NCBI GenBank assembly: GCA_964503265.1
Contig: CAZCYO010000001.1
Location: 162,064-226,063 of the forward strand
Source: an uncultured Gammaproteobacteria bacterium
GTDB lineage: Bacteria; Patescibacteriota; Microgenomatia; Levybacterales; UBA12049
Length of the DNA: 64,000 nt
Direction: 5' to 3'
Below, piece after piece: positions 3,203 to 51,761 of the stretch; positions within the stretch are counted from its first letter, which is position 1, and every line of letters begins with the position of its first letter. The notes under the pieces were generated by a model. It ran no database searches, had not been told where the DNA came from, and saw only the letters and a list, made by a program, of their open reading frames with translations. The translations under genes were made by a program, and so were the position numbers.

Positions 3203-3262
3203 CTAATTTACCGCTCATTCACCTTGCAAATACCCCTTTTATCTGATAGGATGTGACGAGTT

Positions 3263-4441
3263 ATGCTTATAAAACCTCAAGCGAATAACTTCGCGAAAAT
3301 CCGCGTACTTGGTGTTGGTGGTGGTGGTGGAAATGCTGTTAATTCCATGGTAACCTCTGGCAATATTCAGGGTGTCGATTTTGTGGCAGTTAATACAGAT
3401 GCTCAGGCACTTCTCAGAAATAAAGCAGATATAAAGCTTCAAATTGGAGAGAATTATACCCGGGGACTTGGTAGTGGAGGAGATCCGGAAGTTGGCCGTC
3501 AAGCAGCAGAAGAATCAAGTGAGAAGATCAAACACATGTTAGAAGGATCTGATATGGTATTTTTAACAGCTGGAATGGGTGGGGGAACAGGAACTGGAGC
3601 TATCCCAGTCATCGCTCAGATTTCTAAAGAAGTAGGTGCGCTTACTGTTGCAGTCGTCACAAAACCATTTGCATTTGAAGGAACTCGTCGCATGGTATCT
3701 GCTGAAGAAGGTGTCGAAAGTGTTAAAGATCATGTCGATACATTAATCGTTATTCCAAATCAGAGAATTTTAGAAGTAGTCGATCGCAAACTCTCACTCG
3801 TCGATGCATTTAAAGTAGCTGATTCAGTACTCGAACAGGGTGTTCAGGGTATTTCTGAGATTATCACACTACCTGGACTTATCAATATCGACTTTGCCGA
3901 TGTACGAGCAATCATGCAAAATGCTGGTTCAGCACTCATGGGTATCGGAAAAGGAAAAGGAGAAGGTCGTGCACAAGCCGCAGCAAGGGGGGCAATCGCT
4001 TCCCCGTTACTCGAAGTATCGATGGATGGAGCACGGGGAGTATTATTTAATATCGTCGGTGGCCCTGATCTTACAATGACTGAGGTAGACGAAGCAGCGA
4101 AGATTATTAAATCAGCAGCAGATCCAGATGCGAACATTATTTTTGGAGCAGCAATTGAAGAATCTATGCGAGATGAACTGCGTATCACCGTCGTCGCGAC
4201 GGGATTTGACAGTAATCGTGTTACGATGCGAGACTTCATCCCAAATCGCTACAGCACACCATCAGTTCCATCCCAGCAAGAACCAGAAGAACGTCACGAG
4301 CGTCAAGATATACCAAATCAGCCATCTCAACCATCAAATGTACTTAACCAAGGCGGCATGCCACAGCAGCCACAAGAAAAGAAATCAGACAAAGAAGAAG
4401 ACGAATGGGACATCCCCGCATTCCTAAGGCAGAGAAACTAA
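3263..4441 (+). CDS. ftsZ: cell division GTPase FtsZ
   Basis: Tubulin signature [14 protein letters not shown]7 loop NIDFADV, acidic/Pro-Gln-rich C-terminal linker and conserved C-terminal DIPAFLR peptide. Confidence 0.95.
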
Positions 4442-10007: not shown

Positions 10008-11447
10008 ATGAAAGCAGTTTGGGATCTTAAGGCTCAGTTTGAACAGTACAATGGAGAAGAAGTATTTGATTGTCTGGTGGCGGATTTTTTGCTTTCTGAA
10101 GGACGATACATTCCAGACGAAGTAATCGCACTTGATAAATATAAGGTATTTACTCTTGAAGAATTGGCTGAAAAACAACAACAACTTCTTTCAGATCTTC
10201 CATCTCTTCAGAAATTATTTATTGATGTAGAAATGCCGCTGGTTTCTATTCTCTATAAAATGGAGAGGACAGGAATATTACTTGATACTAACCGTCTTAA
10301 AACGTTAGGTGAAGAAATACTCCTTGCGAGTGAGAACCTAGAGGAAGAAATGTTTAAGGAGATGGGAGAAGAAATGAATTTAAATTCTAGTCAACAGGTT
10401 GGGAATTATTTGGTTGAGAAAGCAGGCGTTCCACTTGGAAAAACGACGACGGGCAGATATGCGACGAATGAATTAGAGTTACAGAAATTTGCTGATCAGT
10501 TTCCGATAATCGAAAAATTGTTACTCATTCGAGAACTGAGAAAACTTTACTCAACGTATGTCGAAAGTCTCATCAGTAAAGTAGATGAAAAAGGACGAAT
10601 TCATACGACATATCATCAAACTGCAGTTAGTACGGGGCGTCTTGCTTCTTCAAATCCTAATCTTCAAAATATTCCTGTCAGCTCTGAATATGGAAGACAA
10701 ATAAAATCTTGTTTTATGGCAGAAGAGGGAAAAATACTTCTGTCTTTTGACTATTCACAGCAAGAACTTAGAATTCTTGCACATCTGACAGGTGAGGAAA
10801 AACTAATCTCTGCATTTAATGAACATCGTGATGTGCATAAAACGACTGCGAGTCAGTTGTTTTCAGTGAAGTATGAAGAAGTTACGAAAGAACAGCGACA
10901 GATAGGAAAAACAATTAACTTCGGTATTATTTATGGGATGGGTAGTTATGGAATGAGTGAAGGACTGAATATCACTGTCGATGTCGCACAGAAATTTATT
11001 AATACATTTTATGAAACCTATCCGAAAATTAGAACGTATTATGATACGTATCTAAGTGATGGAAAGAAAAATGATTTCGTCGAAACGATACTGGGTAGAC
11101 GCCGATATGTGCTGCAGTATCCCGGTCAGAAGTTTATAGATAACGGGACAAAACGCGTTCTCATGAATTATCCAATTCAAGGAAGTGCTGCAGACTTGAT
11201 GAAACTCGCGATGGTTGAAGTTAAAAAGCAAATTTTAGATAAATACCCAGAAGTACAACTTCTTCTCCAAATCCATGACGATCTCGTATTTGAAATTCCA
11301 GACGATGAAAAAATGATTACTGAATTAATTCCAAAAATTCGAGATGTTATGTGTACTGTGTATCCTCTATTAGTTCCTGTCGAAATTGATGTGAAGATGG
11401 GGAAACGATGGGGAGAAATGGAATTAGTAAAACCAATTCTTTCATAA
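10008..11447 (+). CDS. polA: DNA polymerase I, family A polymerase domain only (no 5'-nuclease or 3'-5' exonuclease domains)
   Basis: Motif A DYSQQELRILAHL, motif B RQIGKTINFGIIYG, motif C QIHDDLVFE; ORF begins at a position equivalent to the end of the 3'-5' exo domain; 62 bp upstream is a divergent gene. Confidence 0.85.
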   Translation: MKAVWDLKAQFEQYNGEEVFDCLVADFLLSEGRYIPDEVIALDKYKVFTLEELAEKQQQLLSDLPSLQKLFIDVEMPLVSILYKMERTGILLDTNRLKTLGEEILLASENLEEEMFKEMGEEMNLNSSQQVGNYLVEKAGVPLGKTTTGRYATNELELQKFADQFPIIEKLLLIRELRKLYSTYVESLISKVDEKGRIHTTYHQTAVSTGRLASSNPNLQNIPVSSEYGRQIKSCFMAEEGKILLSFDYSQQELRILAHLTGEEKLISAFNEHRDVHKTTASQLFSVKYEEVTKEQRQIGKTINFGIIYGMGSYGMSEGLNITVDVAQKFINTFYETYPKIRTYYDTYLSDGKKNDFVETILGRRRYVLQYPGQKFIDNGTKRVLMNYPIQGSAADLMKLAMVEVKKQILDKYPEVQLLLQIHDDLVFEIPDDEKMITELIPKIRDVMCTVYPLLVPVEIDVKMGKRWGEMELVKPILS

Positions 11448-11500: not shown

Positions 11501-12562
11501 ATGGAGTTTATCTTTCAAATTGGGTTAGTTTTTCTTCTTGTACTATTAAATGGATATTTCGTCGCTTCAGAATTCGCACTGGTGGCGGTCAGAAAAACTC
11601 GAATTGAAGAACTCGCTCGGAAAGGAAATAAAACAGCGAAAGTTCTAAAGAATGCTCTCAATGAACTAGATACCTATATTTCAGCAACTCAGCTGGGGAT
11701 AACACTTGCTAGTCTGGCACTTGGATGGATAGGTGAGCCAGCTATCGCGCATTTTATAGAACCATTCCTTTCATTTCTCCCGAAATCAACGATGATAATT
11801 AGTGCGCATACAATCTCTGTTATTCTGGCGTTTAGTAGCATTACATTTTTACACATAGTACTCGGAGAGTTGGCGCCAAAATCACTCGCACTACAGAGAT
11901 CAGAATTTGTTTCCCTTATCATCATCACACCGCTTGTTTTTTTTGCAAAAACATTTAGTCCTTTTATTTGGCTACTTAATGAAACAGGAAAATTAGTTCT
12001 AAAACTGTTCGGGCTTCACACTGACACAAAACATCAAACGATTTATTCAGAAGAAGAAGTTCGCATGATACTTCGTCAAAGTAGTGAAGGGGGAGCAATT
12101 CCTGTACGAGAAGTGGAGATGGTTTACAACATTTTCCAATTAGGTGATATTCCAGTCAAGAAAGTAATGGTCCCACGAAGTAAAACACTTGCACTACCAG
12201 TCAATACACCTCTGAAAGACGTCGTTAAAAAAATTGATAAATACCAACATAGTAGATTTCCTGTTTATAAAACGTCGATCGATGTTATCACTGGATTTAT
12301 TCATGTAAAAGATATTTATCGAGCACTTCTTAAATATGGAGGAGACGTAGTGATATCTGAATGTAAAATTACCAGGAAAGTAATTACAATTTCAGAAACA
12401 AAAAAAATAGGAACACTCTTACAAGAAATGAGAAAAAAAAGAGTACATTTAGCAGTTGTAAAAGATGAAAGAAAAAGGACCGTAGGAGTTGTAACATTTG
12501 AAGATATTATTGAAAGTGTCGTTGGAGAGATTGAAGATGAATTTGATGCTCCAGGTGAGTAA
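11501..12562 (+). CDS. CNNM/CorC/TlyC-family membrane protein (DUF21 + tandem CBS + CorC_HlyC)
   Basis: N-terminal DUF21 TM domain (VASEFALVAVRKTRIEEL), CBS pairs, C-terminal transporter-associated domain. Confidence 0.8.
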   Translation: MEFIFQIGLVFLLVLLNGYFVASEFALVAVRKTRIEELARKGNKTAKVLKNALNELDTYISATQLGITLASLALGWIGEPAIAHFIEPFLSFLPKSTMIISAHTISVILAFSSITFLHIVLGELAPKSLALQRSEFVSLIIITPLVFFAKTFSPFIWLLNETGKLVLKLFGLHTDTKHQTIYSEEEVRMILRQSSEGGAIPVREVEMVYNIFQLGDIPVKKVMVPRSKTLALPVNTPLKDVVKKIDKYQHSRFPVYKTSIDVITGFIHVKDIYRALLKYGGDVVISECKITRKVITISETKKIGTLLQEMRKKRVHLAVVKDERKRTVGVVTFEDIIESVVGEIEDEFDAPGE

Positions 12563-12589
12563 CATATATAAAATTGCTATAATAATGCT

Positions 12590-19206: not shown

Positions 19207-19881
19207 ATGGAATTTACATCACTCACGGTTAATGAAGTGCGAAATGAGACACAGGAGTATCGTTCTATAATTTTTCAAAAGCCGAAAGATTTTAGTTTTA
19301 CTCTTGGAGAATGTTTTTCTCTTCGATTTCCAGGTGAAGATAGTTCTAAAGTTTTTTCATTTGCTTCCTCTCCCACAGAAGACCGAATAGTAATCTCATA
19401 TAAGAAGGGGATAAGTCGTTTTAAGAAACAACTTGATAATCTTCATACTGGCGATCAGATGGAAGTATCATTATATGGAAGTCAATTTCACTTTGATGAA
19501 AAGAAATCATCGGTTTTTATTGCAGGTGGAATAGGAATTACAGCTTTTAGAAGCATTATTTCCTACTGTGTTGATAAAAACATTCGTTCTCCGATTCACT
19601 TATTGTTTTGCAATAGAACAGATACGTTTCCTTTTCACGATGATCTTACTTATTTTTTAACAAAACTGCCTCATTTACGTATTACATTTATTTCGACTGA
19701 TAAAGAAGGAAGATTAACTACAGAAGAAATAAAAAAAGTTATTACTAGTTATAATGAGGAATTCTATTTAGCTGGCCCTCCACTTATGATTGATTCAACT
19801 GTCGAATTATTACAGTCGTGTGGTATTAATTCAAATCAAATACACACTGAAAGTTTTGACGGGTATTTTGAAGAAGTTTAA
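19207..19881 (+). CDS. FNR-family FAD/NAD(P)-binding oxidoreductase
   Basis: RxYS-like FAD motif (KVFSFASSP) and NAD-binding GGIGITAF. Confidence 0.55.
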   Translation: MEFTSLTVNEVRNETQEYRSIIFQKPKDFSFTLGECFSLRFPGEDSSKVFSFASSPTEDRIVISYKKGISRFKKQLDNLHTGDQMEVSLYGSQFHFDEKKSSVFIAGGIGITAFRSIISYCVDKNIRSPIHLLFCNRTDTFPFHDDLTYFLTKLPHLRITFISTDKEGRLTTEEIKKVITSYNEEFYLAGPPLMIDSTVELLQSCGINSNQIHTESFDGYFEEV

Positions 19882-21056
19882 ATAGCTTGAGGTTTGGTCT
19901 GAAGTGGCAATGTAACAGTAAATTCTGTACCAGATCCGAGTGTGCTTTCTACTTTTATTTTTCCACCGTGAGCTGTGATAATTTGATGTGTTATGTATAA
20001 TCCGACACCAAGCCCCTGGTAATTATGTGATGTTGTCGCTCTTTGGAAACGACCAAAAACCTTTCCTACTTTTTCAGGATGAATACCAATTCCTTCATCA
20101 CTTACAATAATCGTAGCGCTAGTATTATGTTTTAAAACCGTAATTGTGATTGGGTTATTGTCTCCATATTTAATCGCATTTGTAATAAGGTTCGTGATTA
20201 CCTGTTCTATTCGCACTTTATCCCATGTTCCTTTTATGGGATCTTTTGCGTTCAGTGTGAGTGTATAATTTTCTCGTTTCATTTTTTCACTAAATCTATC
20301 AACTACTTCCCGAACAAGTGCTGATAAATCAAATTCTTCAACCTCTAATTCTAATCTTCCTGTTGTGATAAGAGATACATTTAAGAGATCATTTATCATT
20401 TTTGACAGCCGGGTACTTTGTTGCTCGGTGCTTTCAATCATTTTTAATAGCTTCTCAACAGAAAAATTTGCAAGTGAAACATTTCGAATGTTATGAAGAA
20501 CTGTTTGTAGTTGAAGAAGCATTGATGTCAGTGGTGTTTTAAGTTCATGTGTTGCTATAGATAGGAATTCATCTCTTGCTCGAATTTCTTTTTCTGCATC
20601 TTTTAATTTCGTATCGAAATGTCTAATAAGCTTTTTGTATTCTTCGTTTTCGTCTTGTATTTTTTGTAGTTCAGCAGAATATGTAGACTTCTGCATGAGA
20701 ATACTTATAGCAATCCCTTCCAGGAACATAACGAGAACGGATGGAATAACCCAAAACGGCAGTGTCGGATGAGTAATACCTAAATGATAAAATGTAAATA
20801 GTAGACAGGAAATAGTTGTCGTTGTGATTCCACCATTTTTGCCAGTATACCATGCACTCAAAGCAGTTAGCGGAAAAAAGAATAAATAGAGACCAACATA
20901 ACCTATAAACGGAACAAAAAGTACAGAAAGGAAAACAATTACAATACCGATGAGGCTCGCAATTGCGTATACATGCATGATTGCACTTCTCTTGTTTTTT
21001 TTATCACCTATGAGTATCAACGCGCTTTGTTCGTGCTCAGAAGAATTTTTATCCAT
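19878..21056 (-). CDS. sensor histidine kinase (multi-TM sensor, HisKA + HATPase_c)
   Basis: H-box SIATHELKTPLTSM, N/G1/G2 boxes (NLITNAIKYG, DEGIGI, GLGVGLYITHQII); no response regulator adjacent. Confidence 0.85.
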   Translation of the reverse strand: MDKNSSEHEQSALILIGDKKNKRSAIMHVYAIASLIGIVIVFLSVLFVPFIGYVGLYLFFFPLTALSAWYTGKNGGITTTTISCLLFTFYHLGITHPTLPFWVIPSVLVMFLEGIAISILMQKSTYSAELQKIQDENEEYKKLIRHFDTKLKDAEKEIRARDEFLSIATHELKTPLTSMLLQLQTVLHNIRNVSLANFSVEKLLKMIESTEQQSTRLSKMINDLLNVSLITTGRLELEVEEFDLSALVREVVDRFSEKMKRENYTLTLNAKDPIKGTWDKVRIEQVITNLITNAIKYGDNNPITITVLKHNTSATIIVSDEGIGIHPEKVGKVFGRFQRATTSHNYQGLGVGLYITHQIITAHGGKIKVESTLGSGTEFTVTLPLQTKPQAI

Positions 21057-25072: not shown

Positions 25073-26182
25073 TTACTCTTTTACCAATTGATAGCCAAGT
25101 TTTTTATGATTGATAATTTCGTACCCTTTTTCTTTAATGTACGGGTGATGGCGAAGTCTGTAAACGAGAGAGTCAAGCGCCCAGTCTGTTGAACCAGTTG
25201 TTATATTTTTCCACACTGTTTCAATAATTTTTTCTTTAGAAATAATTTTCCCATTGTTCTTTTTTAAAAATTGAAAAAGGAGTTGTTCTTTCACAGATAA
25301 GTGAAATGACTTCTTTTTACAGATATATTCTTTTAGAAGTGGACTAAATAATTGATATGTTTCTTTATCATGTTTTACAACACCTATTTGTAAGAGAAAA
25401 CTATCCATATCAACTGTTTTTTCCTGAGCAATTCGTTCAATAATGCGTACTTGAGGACGAGTCAAAAAGCTCAGAATATCTTTTAAAAGAAGTTTAATAT
25501 AAGGATCATGGTTGAGGTTATTTGGAGTAGACGAACGAAGAATAAGCTGGAGAAGTTGAATATGTCCACCGCTTAGAGTCAGTGCATCTAGTATATTTTC
25601 TTTATGAATAACTTCAGGGGAATGAATTTTTAGTAATGCTTTTAAATCTTCGTGAGAATAGGGTGTAAAGTACACATATCGAGAAAAGATATGCATATTA
25701 CTCCCAACGACTGCCGCAGGATTATATTCTATAAATGGCTTATTTACACTAAAAATGAGGCTTACTTTCCCTTCGTTTTCATAACAAAGCGTTCTAAAAT
25801 TTCCTAAAAAAGATTCAGAAAATTCATGAGAGAGAAGATCAATTTTATTAACCATAATGACAACTCGATTATGTAGTTTTGTTATCGCATGCAGGGCAAC
25901 TTTACATTCTTCAAAAGAAACATTCTCTTTTTTAATGCCAGACATTTTATAAAAGAGTACATCAAGAAATACACGTTTTGAAAATTCAGCCAATTCATAT
26001 GTATCAAGAAGTATGGTATATGCGTCAATTTTATTTTCAATAAAACGTAAGAATGGAGAAATACCAACAGAGGGCATGCCGATAAGAGAAAAAGACTGCC
26101 CGCTCATAATAAACGAGCGAACTTGCTCTAACATATTTCCAGCAAATGTATCTGGCAAAAGTGACTCTTTTTGTTTATTCAT
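25073..26182 (-). CDS. transcriptional regulator with N-terminal NTPase-like domain and C-terminal OmpR/PhoB-type winged helix
   Basis: C-terminus LSVKEQLLFQFLKKNNGKIISKEKIIETVW...DSLVYRLRHH...LGYQLV matches trans_reg_C; N-terminal region has degenerate P-loop-like GMPSVGIS. Confidence 0.5.
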   Translation of the reverse strand: MNKQKESLLPDTFAGNMLEQVRSFIMSGQSFSLIGMPSVGISPFLRFIENKIDAYTILLDTYELAEFSKRVFLDVLFYKMSGIKKENVSFEECKVALHAITKLHNRVVIMVNKIDLLSHEFSESFLGNFRTLCYENEGKVSLIFSVNKPFIEYNPAAVVGSNMHIFSRYVYFTPYSHEDLKALLKIHSPEVIHKENILDALTLSGGHIQLLQLILRSSTPNNLNHDPYIKLLLKDILSFLTRPQVRIIERIAQEKTVDMDSFLLQIGVVKHDKETYQLFSPLLKEYICKKKSFHLSVKEQLLFQFLKKNNGKIISKEKIIETVWKNITTGSTDWALDSLVYRLRHHPYIKEKGYEIINHKKLGYQLVKE

Positions 26183-26353
26183 TAATTTATGCCTAATTTC
26201 ATCAGTATTTTATCATTTTAGTATCAAGAAATACAGAGGAATTGGTTATATCATGAAGTTACTTTCCTCAGACACGTTAAACAGTAGCGTTTAGCATTTT
26301 TTTAGGAGAGGATCTTGAACAACTGATCGAATAGTATCTGAGAGGAGACGGTC

Positions 26354-26854
26354 ATGCACGATGCATTCACTTACTGCCCGAACTGTGGTGGTACGTTGGT
26401 GTGGCCAGTTATCACTCCTGGTCAGTCACATGGACGGCCAAAGTGTATTAACTGTGGTTTCACCGACTATCATAATCCAATCCCAGCTGTTTGTGCGATC
26501 GTCCCTTACGAAGGAGGAGTCGTACTAATACAGCGGAAGAAGGCCCCTTTCCCTGGGTCGTGGTGCTTGCCTTGTGGGTTTGTCGATTATCGCGAGCAGC
26601 CAGATGATGCTATCGTTCGCGAGGTACGCGAAGAGACTGGACTCATTGTTAGTCCGAGTTCTGTCGTTCTGGCATGTGTGCCAGAACAGACGAACGAGCT
26701 CGTACTTCACTACCATACTGAGGTCGTCGGTGGCGAGCTTATCGCTGGTGACGATGCTTATAGTGCAGCTGTCTACATGTCTGGCAATTTGCCAGAATAC
26801 ATGCCTTTTAAGACCCATCGAGACATTATCCAGAAATGGTTTTCTCAGAACTGA
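26354..26854 (+). CDS. NUDIX hydrolase with N-terminal C4 zinc ribbon (NudC-like)
   Basis: CPNCGG...CINCGF zinc ribbon; Nudix box GFVDYREQPDDAIVREVREETGL; GC ~50% and canonical GAGGAG SD, unlike neighbours. Confidence 0.75.
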   Translation: MHDAFTYCPNCGGTLVWPVITPGQSHGRPKCINCGFTDYHNPIPAVCAIVPYEGGVVLIQRKKAPFPGSWCLPCGFVDYREQPDDAIVREVREETGLIVSPSSVVLACVPEQTNELVLHYHTEVVGGELIAGDDAYSAAVYMSGNLPEYMPFKTHRDIIQKWFSQN

Positions 26855-26912
26855 TTTCTTACTAATTTAGTAACGAGTTCATCTCTCTGACTTTTCGATT
26901 AGTTTATTTTTC

Positions 26913-26946
26913 GCCCCCTGGTATCCACCGGGGGGCTTTCTTTTAC
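26913..26946 (+). terminator. Rho-independent terminator (gccccctgg / ccggggggc stem with one G-U, loop tatcca, then TTTCTTTTAC)
   Basis: GC-rich hairpin plus T-tract 60 nt after the NUDIX stop. Confidence 0.65.
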
Positions 26947-27001
26947 ACAAGAAGAATATGGTGAGATAACCAGGTAAAAGTATCATGTTACAATACCTGT
27001 A

Positions 27002-34413: not shown

Positions 34414-36009
34414 ATGGAACAGGAATCTTTGCAGCTTATTGTTAAAAAAAATCCCCTTTGGTTTGACCTGTTGCTTCCTTTTTACATCGTTGTTAGCTTA
34501 TGGTACTTAATATGGATTTATGCATTATCACTTGATTGGTATACATGGTTTGCTGTACCACTGTTTACGGCAGAGATTTATCGAATTTGGTTTTCAATTA
34601 CATCACTTATTACAGCGCGTGTTCTGGCATGCCCTAAAAAAATTGATGCACCCACAACCATTTCTGTGGATGTTCTTATTCCGACACTTAATGAACCATT
34701 TGAAGTACTGGGAAAAACCATTGATGGAGCGATGAATATACGAGGTATTAAGAAGGTACTTGTGTTAGATGATGGAAAAAGGGAATGGGTTGAAGCGTAC
34801 TGTCAAGATATTGGAGCTATCTACTTAGCACGAGGAACAAATGTTCACGCTAAAGCGGGTAATTTAAATTTTGGGTTAAAACATTCTACAGCTGATTTTT
34901 TAATTACCCTTGATGCTGATCATATTCCAGAACCAGATTTTATCGAAAAAACTGCGGGATATTTTCATGATCCAAAACTCGCATTTATTCAAACTCCTCA
35001 AACATTTTATAACCTGGATAGTTTTCAGCACAGATCTGTTAAATCGTATCCACTGTGGAATGAGCAATCGATGTTTTATGATTCGATTCAACCGGCAAAA
35101 AATATATTTAATGCTGCGTTCTTTTGTGGAAGTAGTGCAATTATCAGACGAAGTGCACTCGATAGTATCGGAGGATTTGCGACAGGTACTGCAACAGAAG
35201 ATATTCATACAGCAATTCGAATTCATAGTAAAGGATGGAAGTCACTATTCCTTTCAGATGTACTTGCTCGAGGACTTGCACCAGCTGATCTTAAGGAATA
35301 CCATAAACAGCGAGTGCGCTGGGGTGCTGGTTCACTGGGACTACTTCTCCGTACAAAAGACTCACCACTTTTAATCCGAGGGCTTTCTCCAATGCAGAGA
35401 ATTTGTTATGTAAATTCAACTCTCGCATATGCTCAGGGACACGTGAAGTTATTTTACTGGATTTTGCCGATCATTATTATTTTTGCCGGGCATAATCCAT
35501 TTCGAATACCATTTCTTATTTTCTTAAGTATTTATCTTCCATATTTTTGGTTTTCCATCTGGATGACGAAATTATATTCACGCAATTCTTATCATCCGAT
35601 GTATACAGAACAGTATAATATCGCGAATATTTTTTCTAATTTAGTGGCTCTTAAAGGCGTTATTCGAGTACAGAAAAAATTTGCTGTATCGATAAAACTT
35701 AAAAAGAAACAAGAAAATTCATTTATCATAAAAGCGATGACTGGAATTGCATTAACGATGATTGGGGCTGAAGGATATGGATTATATTATTGGTATGCGC
35801 AGTATCATTTTTCAATTGAGAAACTTCTAAGTGATACGATCGTTTCTGGTATGTTTTGGAATTTGTTCAATCTTTTTTTCTTGCTTTCATTCTTAAAATT
35901 TGTGTATCAATTTAATAAACAAAAACAATTTCTGCATGAGGAAAAAAGGGAATTACAAACTGAAAATGTTACTTCTTTTAATCATGCTTCTCTTCAAATA
36001 AACCCATAG
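34414..36009 (+). CDS. processive GT2 beta-glycan synthase (cellulose synthase catalytic subunit BcsA-like)
   Basis: D (VLDDGK), DxD (LDADH), TED (TATEDIHT) and QxxRW (QRVRWGAG) motifs, N- and C-terminal TM bundles. Confidence 0.8.
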   Translation: MEQESLQLIVKKNPLWFDLLLPFYIVVSLWYLIWIYALSLDWYTWFAVPLFTAEIYRIWFSITSLITARVLACPKKIDAPTTISVDVLIPTLNEPFEVLGKTIDGAMNIRGIKKVLVLDDGKREWVEAYCQDIGAIYLARGTNVHAKAGNLNFGLKHSTADFLITLDADHIPEPDFIEKTAGYFHDPKLAFIQTPQTFYNLDSFQHRSVKSYPLWNEQSMFYDSIQPAKNIFNAAFFCGSSAIIRRSALDSIGGFATGTATEDIHTAIRIHSKGWKSLFLSDVLARGLAPADLKEYHKQRVRWGAGSLGLLLRTKDSPLLIRGLSPMQRICYVNSTLAYAQGHVKLFYWILPIIIIFAGHNPFRIPFLIFLSIYLPYFWFSIWMTKLYSRNSYHPMYTEQYNIANIFSNLVALKGVIRVQKKFAVSIKLKKKQENSFIIKAMTGIALTMIGAEGYGLYYWYAQYHFSIEKLLSDTIVSGMFWNLFNLFFLLSFLKFVYQFNKQKQFLHEEKRELQTENVTSFNHASLQINP

Positions 36010-36027
36010 TTTAATTTCCTCTTCACA

Positions 36028-36038
36028 TTTGGTATACT
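36028..36038 (+). promoter_or_regulatory. module 0 promoter: extended -10 TTGGTATACT
   Basis: TGnTATACT directly after the GT2 stop; the same ttcctcacatttg-type context is seen at the module C promoter. Confidence 0.5.
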
Positions 36039-36069
36039 CTCGCCATGTCTTTCACATTCTCGTGGAAGA

Positions 36070-37168: not shown

Positions 37169-37177
37169 CAATATCTA

Positions 37178-37290
37178 TAAGCACCGTCGCGGTGTAACCG
37201 AGCAGTGATCCTTACTTCTGGACAATGGCGTCCATGAGGCGAGAACTCAGCTTCGGTTGCATAAACCAAAGCGGTGCTTTCTCGTTTTAG
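37178..37290 (+). terminator. module 0 structured terminator: AAGCACCG ... CGGTGCTT closing stem enclosing ~85 nt, then TCTCGTTTTAG
   Basis: Same GCACC/GGTGC closing helix with covarying flanks is found after modules A-D. Confidence 0.55.
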
Positions 37291-37359
37291 AATGATATAT
37301 TTCGAAATATTCCACAATAATCTTCATTACATTATAATCCCATAGCTTGTAAATTTTAC

Positions 37360-38145: not shown

Positions 38146-38174
38146 TAAATAACCCATAGTTCTACTTTAATTCC

Positions 38175-38949: not shown

Positions 38950-38958
38950 CCAAACAAT

Positions 38959-39071
38959 AAGCACCGTGGAGGTGTAACCGAGCAAAGTAGCTCATCAACG
39001 GACAACGGCGTCCATGAGATTGGCACTTAGCTACGGTTACCTAAACCTAAGCGGTGCTTTCTCATTTTTAG
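38959..39071 (+). terminator. module B structured terminator: AAGCACCG ... CGGTGCTT + TCTCATTTTTAG
   Basis: Near-identical in organisation to the module 0 terminator (shared internal ggtgtaaccgagca and ggacaa-ggcgtccatgag). Confidence 0.55.
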
Positions 39072-39108: not shown

Positions 39109-39178
39109 TTCCTCACATTTGAAAGGTACAGAGACTATTCAAGCTGTCTTTATTACTTTATCAATTGTCTAATCTATC

Positions 39179-39189
39179 GCACGTTTACA
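39179..39189 (+). promoter_or_regulatory. module C leader box (TC)GCACGTTTACA
   Basis: Exact 13-mer. Confidence 0.5.
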
Positions 39190-39285
39190 TTTTTTGCGGA
39201 AATTAACCCACTCACCGATGGCTTTTTGTTTGGTATCACTACCAGCTGAAAAGCTGTCGAATGAGTGTAATGTAGGAGAGGATCT

Positions 39286-39615
39286 ATGAAGTTCGTGGAG
39301 GTCTACACTCGGTTGGAAGGAGTTCCAGAAGGAACTATCATCAGCTTGACGTTTAAAAAAAAGGACATCAAGAAAATTCTCTATTTGGCTACGATGATCG
39401 GGAAGAAAATCCCTATCTTCACAGTCGAGAAAGGAACAAAGAAGAAAATAAAGCGGCTGTCTCGTAAGCAAGTCTGGTATAACAGACGAGATCGTACGAT
39501 CTCTGTCCGGACCACTTCGACCTTTGGAGAAGCTCTGAATATGGATTGGTTCGTCACAGTTATGTGTTATAGCCTCGAACATGTCGAGGTCTTATTCCAT
39601 CAGGAGCACCGCTGA
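39286..39615 (+). CDS. island module C: soluble Lys-rich protein (109 aa), LTF-motif family
   Basis: SD AGGAGAGG; N-terminus MKFVEVYTRLEGVPEGTIISLTF paralogous to 40816 ORF (MKLVDIYALSSAGIPTGAKLVLTF). Confidence 0.55.
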   Translation: MKFVEVYTRLEGVPEGTIISLTFKKKDIKKILYLATMIGKKIPIFTVEKGTKKKIKRLSRKQVWYNRRDRTISVRTTSTFGEALNMDWFVTVMCYSLEHVEVLFHQEHR

Positions 39616-39913: not shown

Positions 39914-39978
39914 AAGCACCCCGATACGTTTCCAGTGATGGGAATTTCCGAAAGGATAGGGGTGCTTTCTCATTTTTA
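39914..39978 (+). terminator. module C structured terminator: AAGCACCCC ... GGGGTGCTT + TCTCATTTTTAT
   Basis: Compensatory change (CG to CC/GG) relative to modules 0 and B. Confidence 0.55.
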
Positions 39979-40020
39979 TATCCTCAATTCATTGAAACCT
40001 ATAGTTTGATTATTTCTCAT

Positions 40021-40033
40021 TTTTTTGCTATAC
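40021..40033 (+). promoter_or_regulatory. module D promoter: T-tract + extended -10 TGCTATACT
   Basis: tttttTGcTATACT. Confidence 0.5.
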
Positions 40034-40175
40034 TACACATGCATTTGAAGGCTATCTAGACTCATTTTTGCTGTCTCGATAATACTTCTTCTGCTTATTT
40101 ATTCGACCACTGTATCTTACTTTTCGACTTAGATCATTTGATCTGTGGCTTAAAGAGCGATAAGTAGTGGACTTC

Positions 40176-40186
40176 GCACGTTTACA
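40176..40186 (+). promoter_or_regulatory. module D leader box (TC)GCACGTTTACA
   Basis: Exact 13-mer; followed by tcccgat-atac-atcggga hairpin and CGATGGCTTT(T)TG motif shared with module C leader. Confidence 0.5.
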
Positions 40187-40303
40187 AATCATCCCGATAT
40201 ACATCGGGAATTGCGGAAATAGATAACTAATCGATGGCTTTGTGCCTCGACAGACAGTCGGGATAGAAAGTCGTCGGTTAGTTTTTCGTCGAAAGGATCA
40301 TAA

Positions 40304-40606
40304 ATGTCTCACGAAGCTGTTCTGAACATAGTCACAGACCTTCTGCCACTGACGCTGATCGAGATAACCTTCACACTAGAAGGATTTCAGGGTCTCTGCC
40401 TTCTACATCAAATGTGTCAACGCAAGGGTTTACCTCTGCTATTTGACGCGCGGACTCATCGTCGAATTGGACGTCTAGTGAGCATCGGAGAGTGGGGAGA
40501 CGATGGAAATCGTCATATCTTCGGATACATATCCGAGGCTTTTTCTCCCACTCACTTCACTGAAACACTTCAGCCATATCTCGAAAATGTTCGAGTAGTG
40601 GCCTAA
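40304..40606 (+). CDS. island module D: soluble protein (100 aa), LTF-motif family
   Basis: SD AAAGGA; LTLIEITFTLEG motif. Confidence 0.5.
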   Translation: MSHEAVLNIVTDLLPLTLIEITFTLEGFQGLCLLHQMCQRKGLPLLFDARTHRRIGRLVSIGEWGDDGNRHIFGYISEAFSPTHFTETLQPYLENVRVVA

Positions 40607-40629
40607 CCTACATAATGGAGGTGTCCAAC

Positions 40630-40791
40630 ATGCAAACATTCTGCGATCTGTTTGCCATCTTTCTGGTGGCGATCGGGTATACAGCCGCATTAAGCGGCGG
40701 ACTACTCGGTGGGGGAATTCTCATCACAGTTGCGCTCCTTCTCATCTTCGCGCCCACAGTCTATATGGACTGGGCAAAATTGCGTCGCTGA
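40630..40791 (+). CDS. island module D: two-TM mini-membrane protein (53 aa; below ORF-track size cutoff)
   Basis: SD GGAGG 8 nt before ATG; MQTFCDLFAIFLVAIGYTAALSGGLLGGGILITVALLLIF resembles module C mini-protein; coordinates hand-counted (+/-1). Confidence 0.45.
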   Translation: MQTFCDLFAIFLVAIGYTAALSGGLLGGGILITVALLLIFAPTVYMDWAKLRR

Positions 40792-40815
40792 TGCGACAAA
40801 TGTAATGGAGGCACC

Positions 40816-41013
40816 ATGAAGCTCGTCGACATCTATGCTCTGTCCAGTGCTGGTATCCCGACGGGAGCAAAACTCGTACTTACGTTCGAGCTCAATGCGC
40901 ACATGGGTCCTTTCCACCTGAAAGGACTTGTTCAGAATCACAGTTTGCCGACCGCGTCGGCCCCTTCTTGGAGAGCCTGGAGATTAAGCGCCCGTAAGGG
41001 CAATGAGCTATAA
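40816..41013 (+). CDS. island module D: small soluble protein (65 aa), paralog of module C 109-aa protein N-terminus
   Basis: SD GGAGG; MKLVDIYALSSAGIPTGAKLVLTFEL. Confidence 0.5.
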   Translation: MKLVDIYALSSAGIPTGAKLVLTFELNAHMGPFHLKGLVQNHSLPTASAPSWRAWRLSARKGNEL

Positions 41014-41035
41014 CGCAATCGTACACGTGCGAATC

Positions 41036-41112
41036 TCGCACCCTTGGGTCTTTTTAGACCCGCCTCTTTAGAGAGGTTTCTGTAAAAAGAAAGGGTGCGA
41101 TTTTTGCATTTT
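41036..41112 (+). terminator. module D / island-end structured terminator: TCGCACCCTT ... AAGGGTGCGA + TTTTTGCATTTT
   Basis: 10-bp closing helix around two internal hairpins (gggtc/gaccc, cctct/agagg) followed by U-tract, 40 nt before ileS. Confidence 0.55.
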
Positions 41113-41155
41113 ATGCCTAGTTGAATAGGCTCAACCTTTGCGCTACAATTAGCCC

Positions 41156-47605: not shown

Positions 47606-48172
47606 TTAGCTTTTGGTGGTAAAGGGGTTATGTATAACCCTCCATGCAGAGATAGGCCAGTAGACAAAGAGGGCTTTTCCGATAATCTCATCTCTGGTTA
47701 TAAATCCCCACTCTCTGGAATCTGAACTTCCGGTTCTATTATCACCCATGACAATATAGTGTTCTTTCGGAATTGTAACTGTTTTTCCTTCTTCTAAGTA
47801 TGCTCCAGGATTTGTCTTAACATCATGCAGATATACTGTCTCACCAAGTTCTTTTCCATTTATATATACGTGTGTATCGTGAACACTAATCGTTTCACCG
47901 GGAAGTCCAATAATTCTCTTTATATAATCTTTTTCTTTATCGACTGGCGCTTTAAATACGATCACGTCGCCTCTTTTAACTCCATTAATTCTCAGTCCAA
48001 TCAAATTCGTAAGCAAATATTCACGGTCTTTATATGTCGGGAACATAGAATATCCACTCACCTGAAAAGGTCTAAAAAGGAAGAAATAGATAACGAGAAA
48101 TAGCCCGAAGGCCATAAGGATGGTCTGGAGCATATCTGACATGAGAAGATAGGAATGTTTCCAAAAAGACAT
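47606..48172 (-). CDS. lepB: signal peptidase I (S26 family)
   Basis: Catalytic Ser box VSGYSMFPT, Lys box region YIKRIIGLPGE, GDNRTGSSDSREWG. Confidence 0.85.
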   Translation of the reverse strand: MSFWKHSYLLMSDMLQTILMAFGLFLVIYFFLFRPFQVSGYSMFPTYKDREYLLTNLIGLRINGVKRGDVIVFKAPVDKEKDYIKRIIGLPGETISVHDTHVYINGKELGETVYLHDVKTNPGAYLEEGKTVTIPKEHYIVMGDNRTGSSDSREWGFITRDEIIGKALFVYWPISAWRVIHNPFTTKS

Positions 48173-48280
48173 GTGTCTATTATCTGCGGACCACGCTTAA
48201 AAGTCAATTAACATGAGGATTTGTCCTCACTGTTTCGCATAGAAATGCAGCGGGGGGTCAGAGGTGTAATTTGGGATCCC

Positions 48281-48315
48281 TATCTCATGACGAGACGGGG
48301 ATCCCAGGGGTATGG
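48281..48315 (-). terminator. hairpin tgggatccc / gggatccca (9-bp stem) downstream of the minus-strand module E ORFs; a second hairpin tgagga/tcctca + T-rich run lies at ~48211-48230
   Basis: Perfect inverted repeats between module E stop and lepB start; U-tract weak for the first, better for the second. Confidence 0.35.
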
Positions 48316-48330
48316 GATGTAGGATGCGAA

Positions 48331-48534
48331 TTATTGCTTGTCGACCGAGACAGCGCGTTGTTCACTCGATTCGATGCGTAATAAAAGGACAATGCTACAA
48401 AAAACGAGCTCTACTAAAAATAATAGAAAAAGCACGCTGTAGCCCCAAGAAAAGATAATGGAGCAGTACATCCCAGCTAGGCAGGCGATAACAACTAAGA
48501 AGCAGATCCGAGTACTCAGAGGTATACGAGCCAT
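48331..48534 (-). CDS. module E: two-TM mini-membrane protein (67 aa)
   Basis: SD AAAAGGAGG 7 nt before ATG (MARIPL...); the longer ORF-track version (to 48666) overlaps the upstream gene; GC-rich. Confidence 0.5.
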   Translation of the reverse strand: MARIPLSTRICFLVVIACLAGMYCSIIFSWGYSVLFLLFLVELVFCSIVLLLRIESSEQRAVSVDKQ

Positions 48535-48577
48535 AGGAATGCCTCCTTTTTTACTCATCCGCCGTACATCGGCGAGA

Positions 48578-48928
48578 TTAGTTCTGTGAGATTTGTCGCT
48601 GCGTGTCCTCACTAAGGACGCGCATGAACGTCGTGATGACTTCGTCTGATCGGCGCTGTAGGTCATGATCGATGAGTATCTCTCTGATCTTGACGTACTC
48701 CCTTTGACCGAGAATACCAGAGTGCCAGTGATTTGGTGAAGGCCAGCAGAAGAGTTCTGTCGGAGTATTCGTGTCTGGCTGGTACTGGATCAGAAGGATC
48801 TGGACGAGCATGAGTCTGGGGTACCGACGCAGTTCTATCATCATCCCATTATCTAATTCAATGGGGTAGATGGAAGGCTGACCGAATGTCAACTGCATGT
48901 GTAGCTTCGATCCTTCGACGTCACTCAC
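48578..48928 (-). CDS. module E: soluble protein (116 aa), LTF-motif family (KLHMQLTFGQP)
   Basis: GTG start with SD AAAGGAG 6 nt upstream; GC-rich codons. Confidence 0.5.
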   Translation of the reverse strand: MSDVEGSKLHMQLTFGQPSIYPIELDNGMMIELRRYPRLMLVQILLIQYQPDTNTPTELFCWPSPNHWHSGILGQREYVKIREILIDHDLQRRSDEVITTFMRVLSEDTQRQISQN

Positions 48929-49086
48929 GAGCGACTCCTTTCATGTAATACGAATGAACGACGCTCTATGCAGAAATAGTTTCTGAACAGGGTATCGCTC
49001 ACTCATACCATCCTAACATCTCAATGTGCGAAAAATAAATAAATTAAAAAGCAGCAAAACAGCCTGTAATTTATATATTATGGGGT

Positions 49087-49102
49087 ATTATAGCAAAAAA
49101 AA
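49087..49102 (-). promoter_or_regulatory. module E promoter on minus strand: T8 tract + extended -10 TGCTATAAT
   Basis: Reverse complement of 49081-49102 reads cttttttttGCTATAATacccc; leader contains TCGCACATTGAG (cf. TCGCACGTTTACA) at ~49020-49031. Confidence 0.45.
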
Positions 49103-49107
49103 GAGAT

Positions 49108-49836
49108 TTATTCTGGATCTGAGAAGATGAAGTCGGAGATTCTTCGCATGGCTTTGGTGTCCATGGGGTCGACGTTCATGGTTTTGATCATTCTGATAGG
49201 GTATTCGATAAAAAATGAAGCTGGATTTTTCTTCATGCGACGGTTTGAGGTATAGACGAGTAGTTTCGGATCGAATTTAATTTTCCCATGTTTTGCGATG
49301 TGATTGGCGATATCTAAATCTTCGTGCACTTCTTCGTTATCATTATTTACTTCATTACGAACTTTTTCCCACACAGCTTTCGTGAGTCCCATATTCATAC
49401 CATAGAGAATTTCATGGTTTTGGAACGTTTTAAATGTCTTCGCATGAAGGTTAACTACTTTCGTGGACTGTCTTCGAAAGAAAGCAGAATCTCCGTAACA
49501 GACAGGCCCACCAATTGCGTCAAATTTTTTCTCAGAGAGTGTTTCTTTAATGCGTTTAATCCAGTCAGGTGGAACATGTGTATCGGCATCACAGCGGGCT
49601 ATAATATCGCCTGTAGCGGCATCGAACCCTGCGTTACGTGCATATGATATACCCTGCTTCTTTTCGGTCACTACACGGACTCCAAAACGTTTCGCGATAG
49701 GGATAGTTCGATCTGTACAATTATTATCTACGACGATCACTTCATCAGGCATCTCAGACTGATTCATAATACTGTCAAGACACAGTGCGATATATTTTTC
49801 TTCGTTATAAACAGGAATTACAACCGATAGTTTCAT
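49108..49836 (-). CDS. GT2-family glycosyltransferase
   Basis: MKLSVVIPVYNEEKYIALCLDSI ... VVDNNCTDRT ... CDADT. Confidence 0.8.
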   Translation of the reverse strand: MKLSVVIPVYNEEKYIALCLDSIMNQSEMPDEVIVVDNNCTDRTIPIAKRFGVRVVTEKKQGISYARNAGFDAATGDIIARCDADTHVPPDWIKRIKETLSEKKFDAIGGPVCYGDSAFFRRQSTKVVNLHAKTFKTFQNHEILYGMNMGLTKAVWEKVRNEVNNDNEEVHEDLDIANHIAKHGKIKFDPKLLVYTSNRRMKKNPASFFIEYPIRMIKTMNVDPMDTKAMRRISDFIFSDPE

Positions 49837-49931: not shown

Positions 49932-51761
49932 TTAAAGAGAGGAAATAAGATAATTTATATCATCAAAAAGGATCTGATACGCATTTTGATCAATTCCTTT
50001 CCCTTTAAACGTAGTGAGAACTAGTTTAAATGAATTTAGTGCAGCGAGTGAGTATACTTTGTGATTTGTACTTTGAGGATTCTTCGCTTTATTTATAATT
50101 GTGACTAGTCCATCTGCAATTTGTGGAATAATGAGATTAGTTGATTGTAATTCTCTAATATCATCAATGACTGAATCGTACGTTATTATTCGCTGTAGTT
50201 TATTTTTCTTTAAATTTTCTTTATCAAATTTTAATGTGTAAGTGTCATTACCTTTTCCCACAGCACCTATAACGTTCTTAGTTACAACTTCACCGTTACT
50301 GTCATACATAAATCCATTAAGTGTATATGTATGATTCTTTGTGCTATTTATGGATACTGTATATACAGTAGACGATGGTTTATTGAGAAGGAACATTGTG
50401 AATGGTTGCCCGTTTACTTGTGAAGTATTATTTTCATTAGTGATGGGGTCTTGGATGAATGATTCTCCTACAGCATTTCCGTTTGGATCTTTTACTGAAA
50501 TAGTTGTATTTTTATCAGAGTAAAATAATATATACGATAAATCTGTATTAGATGGGGTAAATTTACCGAGATTCTTAAATGTATTAGTATAATCAGTTAA
50601 AAGAGTACGAGAAAAATACGGATCATTTATTAAAAAAGTTGAATCTTGAATTCCTTTTGCTACGATAAAGTGACCAGGTTCTTCTAAAATATCAGGAATA
50701 TTATTAATAAGATCTGTGGTAAGTTGTATTTTATTTGCTCCTGCATATCGTTTATATTCTAATGCGTCATATGCGAATGATGGGTTTTTATCCTTTGCTT
50801 TTTTTGATAATCTCGATAACGCAAGCCAATTAACCCAGCCAGTATTTACATATCCATCAGGTTCTTTTTTAAGCCATGCATTAAGGGTATCTGGATTAAG
50901 CGGTGAATTATCAGGCATTTTCGTAATAATATGATATTGAAAAACCATGGCAGCAGACGTAAGCGCACACCCCCAACTCCCAATCCCCGTATCCTTCGGC
51001 GACCAACTATTTGCAGAATCATAAACATTATTCTTCCAAAGAGGATCAGTTTGCTTAATTAGTGGAACGTTTAAAGAAATTGAATTAGAATCTAAGCTTG
51101 TAACTTTGATGTTATCAAAATATACTTCAGTAACAGTGCTTCCAGAAGCCATGTGGAGTCCGATTTTTCCCGATGGTGAAGGATCGACTAAATATGTATG
51201 GTCTATGATTGGATCTGCTTGAAAATCTCTGTAAATTTTTATATTCTTATTGTTAATTATAATTTTAAAATGAATGGTTTGTTCATTTGAATAGTTACCA
51301 TAAGATATTGCAGTTGTGTCACTGGAATCTTCAACTCTCTGCAAAACAATATCGTTAGGGGATTGGATATGTATACCATTTAAATTACTTTCGTCATTAT
51401 ATCTAAACAAAAATGCATAATCAGATCCTTGAACTAACTCTATATCAAAATCAACAGCATAATTTTTGTTATTAAAATTCCAAGCAGAATCATTTGGAAC
51501 TAAAATTGAAAAACATCCACCTCCATTACTTACCATACCAATCTTTTTATCTAATATGTTGTCTGATTTACTCTTAATTTCCCATTGTGCAGGTTGACCA
51601 TTAAATGTACAATTATTGCTTGCAAGTGTCCAATTGTTAGAGTTTCCTTCATCAAAATTATCTTGAAAAAGTATGTCTGAAGCAAACGAAGATTTTGTCA
51701 GTATAAAAGATATAATTACAGGAAGAATAATGAGCAATGAAATTCTTAATAATATTCTCAC
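49932..51761 (-). CDS. secreted protein with N-terminal jelly-roll/lectin-like region and C39-like papain-fold cysteine peptidase domain
   Basis: Signal peptide MRILLRISLLIILPVIISFILTKSSFA; Cys motif GSWGCALTSAAMVFQYH resembles peptidase C39/BtrH-like. Confidence 0.45.
   Translation of the reverse strand: MRILLRISLLIILPVIISFILTKSSFASDILFQDNFDEGNSNNWTLASNNCTFNGQPAQWEIKSKSDNILDKKIGMVSNGGGCFSILVPNDSAWNFNNKNYAVDFDIELVQGSDYAFLFRYNDESNLNGIHIQSPNDIVLQRVEDSSDTTAISYGNYSNEQTIHFKIIINNKNIKIYRDFQADPIIDHTYLVDPSPSGKIGLHMASGSTVTEVYFDNIKVTSLDSNSISLNVPLIKQTDPLWKNNVYDSANSWSPKDTGIGSWGCALTSAAMVFQYHIITKMPDNSPLNPDTLNAWLKKEPDGYVNTGWVNWLALSRLSKKAKDKNPSFAYDALEYKRYAGANKIQLTTDLINNIPDILEEPGHFIVAKGIQDSTFLINDPYFSRTLLTDYTNTFKNLGKFTPSNTDLSYILFYSDKNTTISVKDPNGNAVGESFIQDPITNENNTSQVNGQPFTMFLLNKPSSTVYTVSINSTKNHTYTLNGFMYDSNGEVVTKNVIGAVGKGNDTYTLKFDKENLKKNKLQRIITYDSVIDDIRELQSTNLIIPQIADGLVTIINKAKNPQSTNHKVYSLAALNSFKLVLTTFKGKGIDQNAYQILFDDINYLISSL

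Follow-up and report, generated by a model that had tools for sequence, protein, structure and literature searches.

The 935 nucleotides (nt) that separate a GT2 gene (242 amino acids, 49836..49108) from lepB (48172..47606) on the minus strand of a 64,000-nt stretch of contig CAZCYO010000001.1 (the window) probably form, on a modest balance of the evidence, a self-contained, lineage-restricted accessory operon of two genes. The operon has a promoter-leader segment in common with a tandem array of small units (A to E, at 36.0-41.1 kb) located ~7 kb away, carries cargo unrelated to that of the array, and does not appear to be a mobile element. This patch, designated F, has a G+C content of 0.44-0.50 compared with ~0.37 in its flanks, and its flanking genes are GT2, lepB, parB, L27 and L21. 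A preliminary description of the sequence had listed a GC-rich patch of ~0.9 kb with a T8 tract and a -10 box, a leader box, a GTG-initiated open reading frame (ORF) of 116 amino acids (F1), a second ORF of 67 amino acids with two transmembrane segments (F2), and hairpins. All of these are present on the minus strand where that description placed them (Table 1), and they exceed what shuffling produces: when the patch was shuffled 1000 times with its dinucleotides preserved, 0.2% of the shuffles contained an ORF of 116 codons or more preceded by a Shine-Dalgarno (SD) sequence, and none (0/1000) contained two such ORFs of 67 codons or more. The predicted extended -10 promoter, which begins 6 nt past the stop codon of the GT2 gene (49110-49108) and has no good -35 hexamer, would drive a leader of ~150 nt followed by F1, a hairpin, F2 and closing stem-loops before the promoter of lepB; the transcript ends and any terminator function are likewise predictions. 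The larger 3' stem-loop (48306-48272) was equalled in stability by 0 of 200 shuffles, lacks a U-tract, and is a putative terminator or stabiliser. The last ~30 nt of the interval as first described contain a promoter-like site (48207-48179) that is lepB's own and lies outside the F unit.

F1 is a genuine, fast-evolving coding gene for a cytoplasmic alpha/beta protein, and founds a new protein family of three members with no known fold match. Its sole relatives across 5.8e9 clustered proteins and 1.84e9 cluster representatives are P0009 (89% identity, from a word-indexed search of the former) and P0010 (39% identity, E 5e-18, from an exhaustive HMMER search of the latter); the exact F1 and F2 sequences are absent from a collection of 15 billion proteins. 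Compared with the P0009 locus of a close strain (L004), F1 shows a ratio of nonsynonymous to synonymous substitution rates (dN/dS) of 0.31 when read in frame and of 1.6-1.7 when read in either alternative frame, with 8, 7 and 18 differences over the three codon positions; the ratio for the neighbouring GT2 gene is 0.007. The start of F1 (SD-N6-GTG) is kept in all three genomes, and the protein is conserved at 39% identity while synonymous sites are saturated. AlphaFold2, supplied with an alignment of the three sequences, predicted a helix, a four-stranded meander and two further helices (predicted local distance difference test score (pLDDT) 81; predicted template modelling score (pTM) 0.73), a model for which Foldseek found no significant match in PDB and BFVD. 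No hit above threshold was obtained for F1, F2 or any of the module proteins in Pfam, PHROGs, PADLOC or NCBIfam. The "LTF motif" that F1 was said to share with the array is a tripeptide that reads LKF and LSH in its own orthologues, and does not stand as a motif. It is highly improbable that the patch encodes a structured non-coding RNA and that its ORFs are by-products of GC-richness, an idea that draws on the strong hairpins in the leader and the 3' region, the absence of a gene call on a contig identical to the window, and the long ORFs that GC-rich DNA yields by chance (at least 116 codons in 6.5% of the patch shuffles when no SD sequence is required). Against it stand the frame-specific substitutions, the conserved SD sequence and start, the confident predicted fold, the survival of the protein at saturated synonymous sites, and the lack of an Rfam match even under permissive settings; for F1 it is largely refuted. 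Rfam 15 gave no gathering-threshold match in the window, and its only matches to the patch and array were microRNA ones at chance level (E>1).

The sequence comparison indicates that F1 has been inherited vertically at the GT2-lepB site since before the split from a sister species. In L004, which comes from another sample and differs from the window by a synonymous substitution rate (dS) of 0.25 in GT2, the GT2 gene is followed by the same promoter, a leader, F1 and F2; there F1 has a dS of 0.225 compared with 0.254 for GT2, and this match, together with the same site order, argues for vertical inheritance. In the sister species (L005, L006, L007 and the GTDB representative L008; amino acid identities of 78% for GT2, 83% for lepB and 94% for parB), GT2 is followed by an F-type leader and an F1 orthologue, and the GT2-lepB interval of L005 spans 2.58 kb with a G+C content of 0.45-0.57 and contains five other small GC-rich ORFs that were called. 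Fourteen further relatives (lepB identity 51-59%) keep the order L21-L27-parB-lepB and lack F1, the GC-rich patch and a neighbouring GT2 orthologue; the 242-amino-acid GT2 gene and F1 are found together in 3/3 genomes and are jointly absent in 14/14. Synteny of lepB and GT2, which had been put forward as a check on insertion, gives a divided picture: two related genomes have the F1 orthologue in place and preceded by the shared leader, and the 14 distant ones have no islet. To this extent the relatives do present an ancestral conserved gene, the outcome that the preliminary description had named as contrary to its own proposal, since the F1 orthologues occupy the GT2-lepB site with a dS like that of GT2. 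In three of the distant relatives, including the closest (L009), the slot that GC-rich islets fill in the window and in L005/L008 holds a transfer RNA (tRNA) gene, tRNA-Val(CAC), on the strand opposite to lepB and 69-185 nt upstream of it; a search of the patch and the L005 interval for remnants of this gene gave matches at shuffle level only, and a scan of the window for tRNA and transfer-messenger RNA genes found none. The absence of the islet from 14 relatives and the presence of tRNA-Val in the slot of three point to a gene-turnover hotspot upstream of lepB.

Within F1, the proportion of synonymous differences (pS) from L004 is 0.08 in the 3' half (48578-48750, minus strand), lower than the 0.31 of the 5' half and the 0.22 of GT2, on small counts, and the 43-nt spacer between F1 and F2 (48535-48577, minus strand) is identical in L004 (0/43 differences). 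Recent recombination or constraint at the RNA level may lie behind the low pS and the identical spacer.

The kinship of F with the array resides in the promoter and leader. A T-tract joined to an extended -10 box (T4+G[CGT]TATA[ACT]T) occurs in the 64 kb only at B, C, D, E and F. The box TGnTATAMT is the generic promoter type of the genome, with 18 sites in the window that include those before the L21 and GT2 genes, and only in B-F, 5 of the 18 sites, are 6 or more of the 8 nt that precede it T. When leaders were scored without the promoter box against 12 control promoter regions, the F leader reached a mean of 12.6 with the array leaders, compared with 9.4 +/- 1.1 and a maximum of 11.0 for the controls (n=12). 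Its alignment with the leader of D is collinear (score 19, the same as for B with D; shuffle p ~0.002), and blastn matched F to D at 65% over 101 nt and to E at 91% over 22 nt. The F-type leaders of the window, L004 and L005 all keep TGCTATAAT-A-CCCATAATAT-TAAAT, a hairpin with the loop TTGCTGCTTTT, and the box GCACATTGAGAT-T-AGGA; the core of this box is kept in both orthologous leaders though they are otherwise diverged, and the -10 box TGCTATAAT is likewise kept in both, the T-tract being absent from the F-type promoter of L005. Across the three genomes 83% of the cells of the 5' hairpin are paired and three pairs have changed on both sides, compared with 17-46% paired when the register was slid, which is modest support because only three sequences are available. 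The leader of L004 has a 58-nt deletion (~49009-48952) that removes the long hairpin predicted next to the SD sequence in the window. A 21-codon upstream ORF, picked out by eye in the leader, was rejected as it lies in the segment deleted in L004.

The leader box of the array reads GCACGTTTACA in B-E and GCACTTTTACA in A; F carries GCACATTGAGA, a partial match with a position weight matrix score of 6.9 compared with 26-28 for B-E and 8.6 for A, which ranks 16th among 128,000 positions (~0.02 expected per 180-nt leader). The promoter-proximal leader of F, with its 5' hairpin, GCTGTTTT-type loop and GCAC box, is probably akin to the leaders of the array and most of all to that of D, as if a promoter-leader segment had been reused before unrelated GC-rich cargo. 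The GCAC-N-TT-N-A boxes may be a common operator or leader element that places small accessory genes under shared regulation, and the occurrence of GCAC-type boxes both in leaders and at or near -10 boxes is easier to reconcile with a DNA operator than with an RNA motif. A candidate regulator for such boxes would be the Trans_reg_C protein encoded at 25073-26182, together with the histidine kinase at 19878-21056. By eye, second box-like sequences directly follow the -10 box in D (CACATTTGAAAGG, 39109-39135, plus strand) and E (GCATTTGAAGG, 40035-40060, plus strand), CACATTTGG abuts the -10 box of unit A (36020-36040), and GGCACGATATAG abuts the TATACT of a 93-amino-acid unit in L004. In the second islet unit of L005, next to lepB (3081-3960, minus strand of that contig), a TATACT promoter is followed by a leader with TTTGCACGTTGATAG and a near-perfect hairpin of ~50 nt, and by two genes for 97-amino-acid membrane proteins; the unit is on the strand opposite to the F-type unit, and the GCAC-type box GCACGTTGATAG in its leader resembles the box of F. 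A 106-amino-acid gene called over the start of the L005 lepB is most likely the leader of this second unit and not a gene.

It is rather unlikely, though not negligibly so, that F arrived horizontally as a "moron-like" pair of genes with no relation to the array and resembles it by coincidence, through a generic strong promoter, an AT-rich leader and a generic SD sequence. TGnTATAMT is indeed the common promoter type here, many genes have the SD sequence GAAAGGA, the best random matches to the GCAC box equal that of F, the T-tract was not kept in L005, and a GC-rich islet with a NUDIX gene (26354-26854) has neither feature. Coincidence fits poorly with a leader score above those of all 12 controls, the collinearity with D, the alignment of the L005 F-type leader to B and D through the same elements, and the restriction of the T-tract (at least 6 of 8) to B-F.

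The cargo and the outer elements of F do not extend this kinship, and the comparison suggests that F is akin to the array through the promoter-leader only. BLASTP found nothing between F1 and the array proteins, hhalign gave a probability of at most 0.2% against C1, D1, E1 and B1, and a six-frame search of the window detected no paralogue of F1, F2 or the islet proteins of L004 and L005. The array proteins are themselves mostly unrelated to each other, similarity being confined to D1/E1/E3 and D2/E2, and the structural model of D1 (pLDDT 53) is too poor for a fold comparison with F1. In A, B, C and E a CCCATAG box (CCTATAG in E) is located 30-31 nt upstream of the -10 hexamer TATACT; F does not have it, the corresponding position being GT2 coding sequence, and CCCCATAA directly follows its -10 box. 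Units A, C and D have a conserved 3' element, AAGCACCG...CGGTGCTTTCTC(A/G)TTTT (76% over 123 nt between A and C, E 1e-21), to which F has no blastn match, ending in a different hairpin. Common to F and the array is the arrangement of a GC-rich gene for a soluble protein followed by a gene for a small membrane protein, F2 having two transmembrane segments like D2 and E2. The earlier claim that F is a sixth member of the module family therefore survives for the promoter, leader, G+C content and gene arrangement, and fails for protein homology, the CCCATAG box and the 3' element, the GCAC box being a partial match; likewise, the alignment to array units that had been suggested yields a leader collinear with D and proteins with no similarity. 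The CCCATAG box of unit A overlaps the stop codon of a GT2 gene of 531 amino acids, and in the sister species CCCCATAGTTGATT is found upstream of the 242-amino-acid GT2 gene (L005 571). Loop differences, seen by eye, distinguish the copies of the 3' element, which could be a terminator or an RNA element of the 3' untranslated region.

The preliminary description went on to call the module a discrete transposable or recombinogenic unit, and nothing found at F bears this out. F has no target-site duplication: the sole repeat shared by its flanks, for which short direct repeats had been anticipated, is a 9-mer within the coding sequences of lepB and GT2, and ~2 such pairs are expected by chance. 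Terminal inverted repeats and attC-type imperfect inverted repeats were also not found at its boundaries. There is no recombinase, integrase or transposase among the scanned ORFs of at least 150 amino acids of the 64-kb window or the Pfam-annotated ORFs of the Logan contigs, which instead include murG, ftsA, ftsZ, polA, ftsW, ileS and envelope glycosylation genes. A second copy of F1 or F2 was found neither in the window nor in the protein collections, and the F1 profile had no match in viral contigs, where scans with a loose promoter-and-box pattern and with an F-type leader pattern returned nothing or chance matches. A scan of one metagenome for the array-type promoter with GCACGTTTACA gave seven matches, each missing either GC-rich cargo or the shared architecture, and these were taken as chance.

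It is quite unlikely that a discrete transposable or cassette-like module, moving or recombining as one piece and landing at dispersed sites, has left its sixth copy in F. Such a history would explain why promoter and leader features are common to F and B-E, why the content of the GT2-lepB interval varies between species, and why a GT2 gene of the same orientation immediately precedes both the array and F; in three relatives the slot is taken by a tRNA gene, a type of gene well known as a site of integration. It is opposed by the lack of target-site duplications, terminal inverted repeats, a tRNA remnant or a recombinase among the scanned ORFs, by cargo proteins that are not homologous to those of the array, by the missing CCCATAG box and 3' element, by the co-divergence of F1 with GT2 at a single site, and by the lack of further copies in the window, the viral contigs and the protein collections. 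F is not demonstrably mobile; what turns over is the gene content of the slot upstream of lepB.

F2 has two hydrophobic segments on the Kyte-Doolittle scale and a charged C-terminal tail, and over the first 27 codons it differs from L004 by three synonymous and two nonsynonymous changes. With little confidence, the small proteins F1, in the cytoplasm, and F2, in the membrane, may be viewed as acting together in a role related to the envelope or to conflict, whether immunity-like or toxin-antidote-like; such a role would suit genes that evolve rapidly, are narrowly distributed and lie among cell-envelope genes. A more specific version, in which the two are a toxin-antitoxin-like or abortive-infection pair with F2 as a membrane toxin (holin-like or CptA-like) and F1 as the antidote, is improbable. 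Adjacent small genes of which the first encodes a soluble protein and the second a protein with two transmembrane segments and a charged tail, evolving rapidly and distributed patchily, would suit it, and F2 has a sub-threshold match to the Pfam family Cpta_toxin (PF07254; E 0.19, 12.3 bits compared with a cut-off of 27.3 bits). On the other hand, there is no significant match to a toxin-antitoxin or defence family in Pfam or PADLOC and no fold match, the promoter scan found no opposite-strand promoter-like site inside the patch, and the different partners downstream of the F1 orthologue in L005 weaken the toxin-antidote version further.

The high G+C content of F has persisted. At third codon positions (GC3) it is 0.61-0.62 in F1 and 0.49 in F2, compared with 0.26 in the long ORFs of the window. 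Synonymous divergence between the window and L005 has reached saturation in GT2 and lepB (pS ~0.75), and the orthologues of F1 have a GC3 of 0.62 and 0.48, compared with 0.34-0.39 for the flanking genes; all other islet ORFs of L004 and L005 lie at 0.59-0.66. A recent transfer that has not yet ameliorated does not fit this pattern, because F1 has been vertically inherited. Either selection acts on the G+C content, for example at the level of messenger RNA (mRNA), or a GC-rich pool has supplied new cargo in place of the old. The NUDIX islet mentioned above (26250-26950, plus strand, up to 0.53 G+C) contains a single gene for a zinc-ribbon NUDIX hydrolase of 166 amino acids (Pfam NUDIX, E 4e-19) with its own SD sequence and a terminator of GC-hairpin and T-run, and by eye no T-tract promoter and no GCAC box; its presence implies that GC-rich islets here are not confined to modules of orphan ORFs (ORFans).

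Several observations weigh against a self-contained two-gene operon with an array-type leader. The resemblance of the F leader to the array is modest (65%) and comes mainly through unit D and AT-rich sequence, and the GCAC box of F matches at the level of the window's best random hits. F2 has no homologue anywhere searched, and the evidence that it is coding is thin, consisting of the SD sequence, the hydrophobic pattern and the 27 comparable codons. In L005 the F1 orthologue is followed by a 110-amino-acid gene and a gene for a membrane protein of 132 amino acids and not by F2, and an obligate partnership of F1 and F2 is doubtful because of these different downstream genes. The role proposed for the pair, itself held with low confidence, has no homology or fold behind it, no gene was called in the patch on the Logan contig that is 100% identical to the window, and the persistence of high GC3 in F1 despite saturation is not accounted for by simple vertical inheritance.

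Among known systems, the phage "morons" reportedly described by Juhala et al. and Hendrix et al. in 2000 are said to be autonomous transcription units with their own promoter, a terminator-like hairpin and an atypical composition. F likewise has a predicted promoter, a 3' stem-loop and a G+C content of 0.44-0.50 compared with 0.37, and is wedged between unrelated genes, but it lies outside any prophage, has no PHROG or viral-contig match, and is flanked by housekeeping and envelope genes. With CptA/CptB (YgfX/YgfY; PF07254) it has only the architecture in common, a small soluble-protein gene followed by a small two-transmembrane-protein gene; the match of F2 is far below threshold, F1 has none, and the partner gene is not kept in the sister species. 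The reuse of promoters, including putative mobile promoters, before non-homologous genes has been documented (Nijveen, Matus-Garcia and van Passel 2012, PMC3575422). Those cases resemble F in that similar 5' regulatory sequence precedes non-homologous genes with no known mobile element, and motifs possibly were carried along; F falls short of their threshold of at least 46 identical bp in 50, its shared part reaches into the transcribed leader, and its cargo consists uniformly of GC-rich ORFans. The rAID-1 orphan-immunity arrays and integron cassette arrays comprise small co-directional genes with skewed G+C content, repetitive intergenic sequences and fast-evolving cargo that varies between strains (bioRxiv 10.1101/471110). 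The style of array is similar here, but there is no XerD or IntI in the scanned window ORFs and no attC-like site, each unit has its own promoter, the repeats consist of promoter and leader boxes, the G+C content is skewed up and not down, no homology to immunity families was found, and F is solitary and vertically inherited. Genomic islands and horizontal gene transfer are common in Patescibacteria (PMC12455944), and F is likewise compositionally atypical, lineage-specific DNA in a streamlined genome of the candidate phyla radiation. It differs from such islands in measuring only 0.9 kb, having no mobility genes that could be found, carrying cargo with no homologue in ~15 billion proteins, and keeping a high GC3.

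A broader proposal, that the array units, F and the units of the sister genomes constitute a recombinase-independent "expression-adaptor" system of Patescibacteria, is speculative and on present evidence improbable. In such a system a conserved promoter-leader of ~85 nt, made up of the T-tract and extended -10 box, the 5' hairpin and GCAC-N-TT-N-A operator boxes, would be coupled repeatedly to unrelated, species-specific GC-rich ORFans for small cytoplasmic and membrane proteins, forming a fast-turnover arsenal (immunity, host interaction or defence) under one regulator; the G+C content of the cargo would be kept by selection on mRNA or by repeated replacement from a GC-rich pool and would not be the waning mark of a transfer. 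If the shared leader truly co-controls the ORFans, this small genome would contain a compact group of jointly regulated small proteins, some cytoplasmic and some in the membrane, that evolve fast and are of a kind expected to act in the envelope or host interactions of episymbiotic Patescibacteria. That F1, vertically inherited in an AT-rich genome, has kept a high GC3 past the saturation of synonymous sites bears on compositional evolution. As a single locus, F would be an ordinary lineage-specific accessory operon, of interest mainly for the reuse of a promoter-leader and for its persistent G+C content.

Table 1. Features of the F unit and of the loci compared with it (window coordinates unless a contig is named).
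Feature	Position	Strand	Basis or remark
F promoter: T8 tract (49102-49095) overlapping extended -10 box TGCTATAAT (49095-49087)	49087..49102	-	read directly; predicted
F 5' leader, 158 nt between -10 box and GTG	48929..49086	-	conserved blocks in three genomes; fold z = -2.8
Conserved 5' leader hairpin, stem TAAATTA/TAATTTA, loop TTGCTGCTTTT	49040..49073	-	three-genome comparison
Leader box TCGCACATTGAG, conserved core GCACATTGAGAT-T-AGGA	49020..49031	-	core kept in L004 and L005
Long strain-specific leader hairpin adjoining the SD sequence	48946..49010	-	fold and alignment gap
F1, 116 amino acids, GTG start, SD AAAGGAG (48941-48935)	48578..48928	-	ORF, orthologues, dN/dS
Intercistronic hairpin CGCCG-ATGTA-CGGCG inside the 43-nt F1-F2 spacer	48559..48575	-	read directly
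F2, 67 amino acids, ATG start, SD AAAAGGAGG (48550-48542), two transmembrane segments	48331..48534	-	ORF, SD, Kyte-Doolittle
3' stem-loop GGGATCCC-cg-TCTC...GAGA-ta-GGGATCCC	48272..48306	-	inverted repeat; fold z = -4.0
Further small hairpin, GAGGA-CAAA-TCCTC, at the islet's 3' edge	48215..48228	-	read directly and fold
Promoter-like site TTGACT-17-GATAAT before lepB, 10/12 match	48179..48207	-	promoter scan
CCCATAG/CCTATAG boxes	36003-36009, 37339-37345, 38153-38159, 39998-40004	+	3 of the window's 4 CCCATAG sites are the boxes of units A, B and C
Multi-hairpin 3' element of A and C, ~110 nt	37177-37290, 38957-39068	+	shorter version in unit D, 39945-39987
tRNA-Val(CAC)	L009 5857-5929, L010 5742-5816, L015 2563-2635	opposite to lepB	

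The other side of the 242-amino-acid GT2 gene is also occupied differently in each genome. Upstream of it, L004 has a GC-rich unit for an acidic protein of 93 amino acids (1-600), L005 has a different GC-rich one for a protein of 131 amino acids with a G+C content of 0.57 (1-600), and the window has an AT-rich gene for a C39-like peptidase of 609 amino acids (49932-51761); these differing neighbours indicate that both sides of the GT2 gene are variable. The contig of L008 ends (10065-10125) 60 nt upstream of ileS, at the place where the tandem array of the window begins, and in L009 the place just upstream of ileS is taken by an ordinary AT-rich gene (12025-12564). These two flanks suggest that the array is lineage-specific as well, and that it may break assemblies.

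Annotation of the islets is uneven. Among the gene calls on the Logan contigs identical to the window, a 137-amino-acid ORF antisense to D1 was called (39169-39582, minus strand) and none in E (40021-41120) or F (48173-49107), and NCBI called only an 89-amino-acid fragment of A1 (L003), which shows that gene callers skip or mis-strand islets of this kind. A strain-variant contig with units D and E (L055) is near-identical to the window apart from an in-frame deletion of 6 nt in E1. Most of the records L008-L021 and L023 are titled "uncultured Gammaproteobacteria bacterium"; gene order and protein identities group them with the two loci titled Patescibacteria and Candidatus Levyibacteriota, and the titles look like placeholder mislabels.

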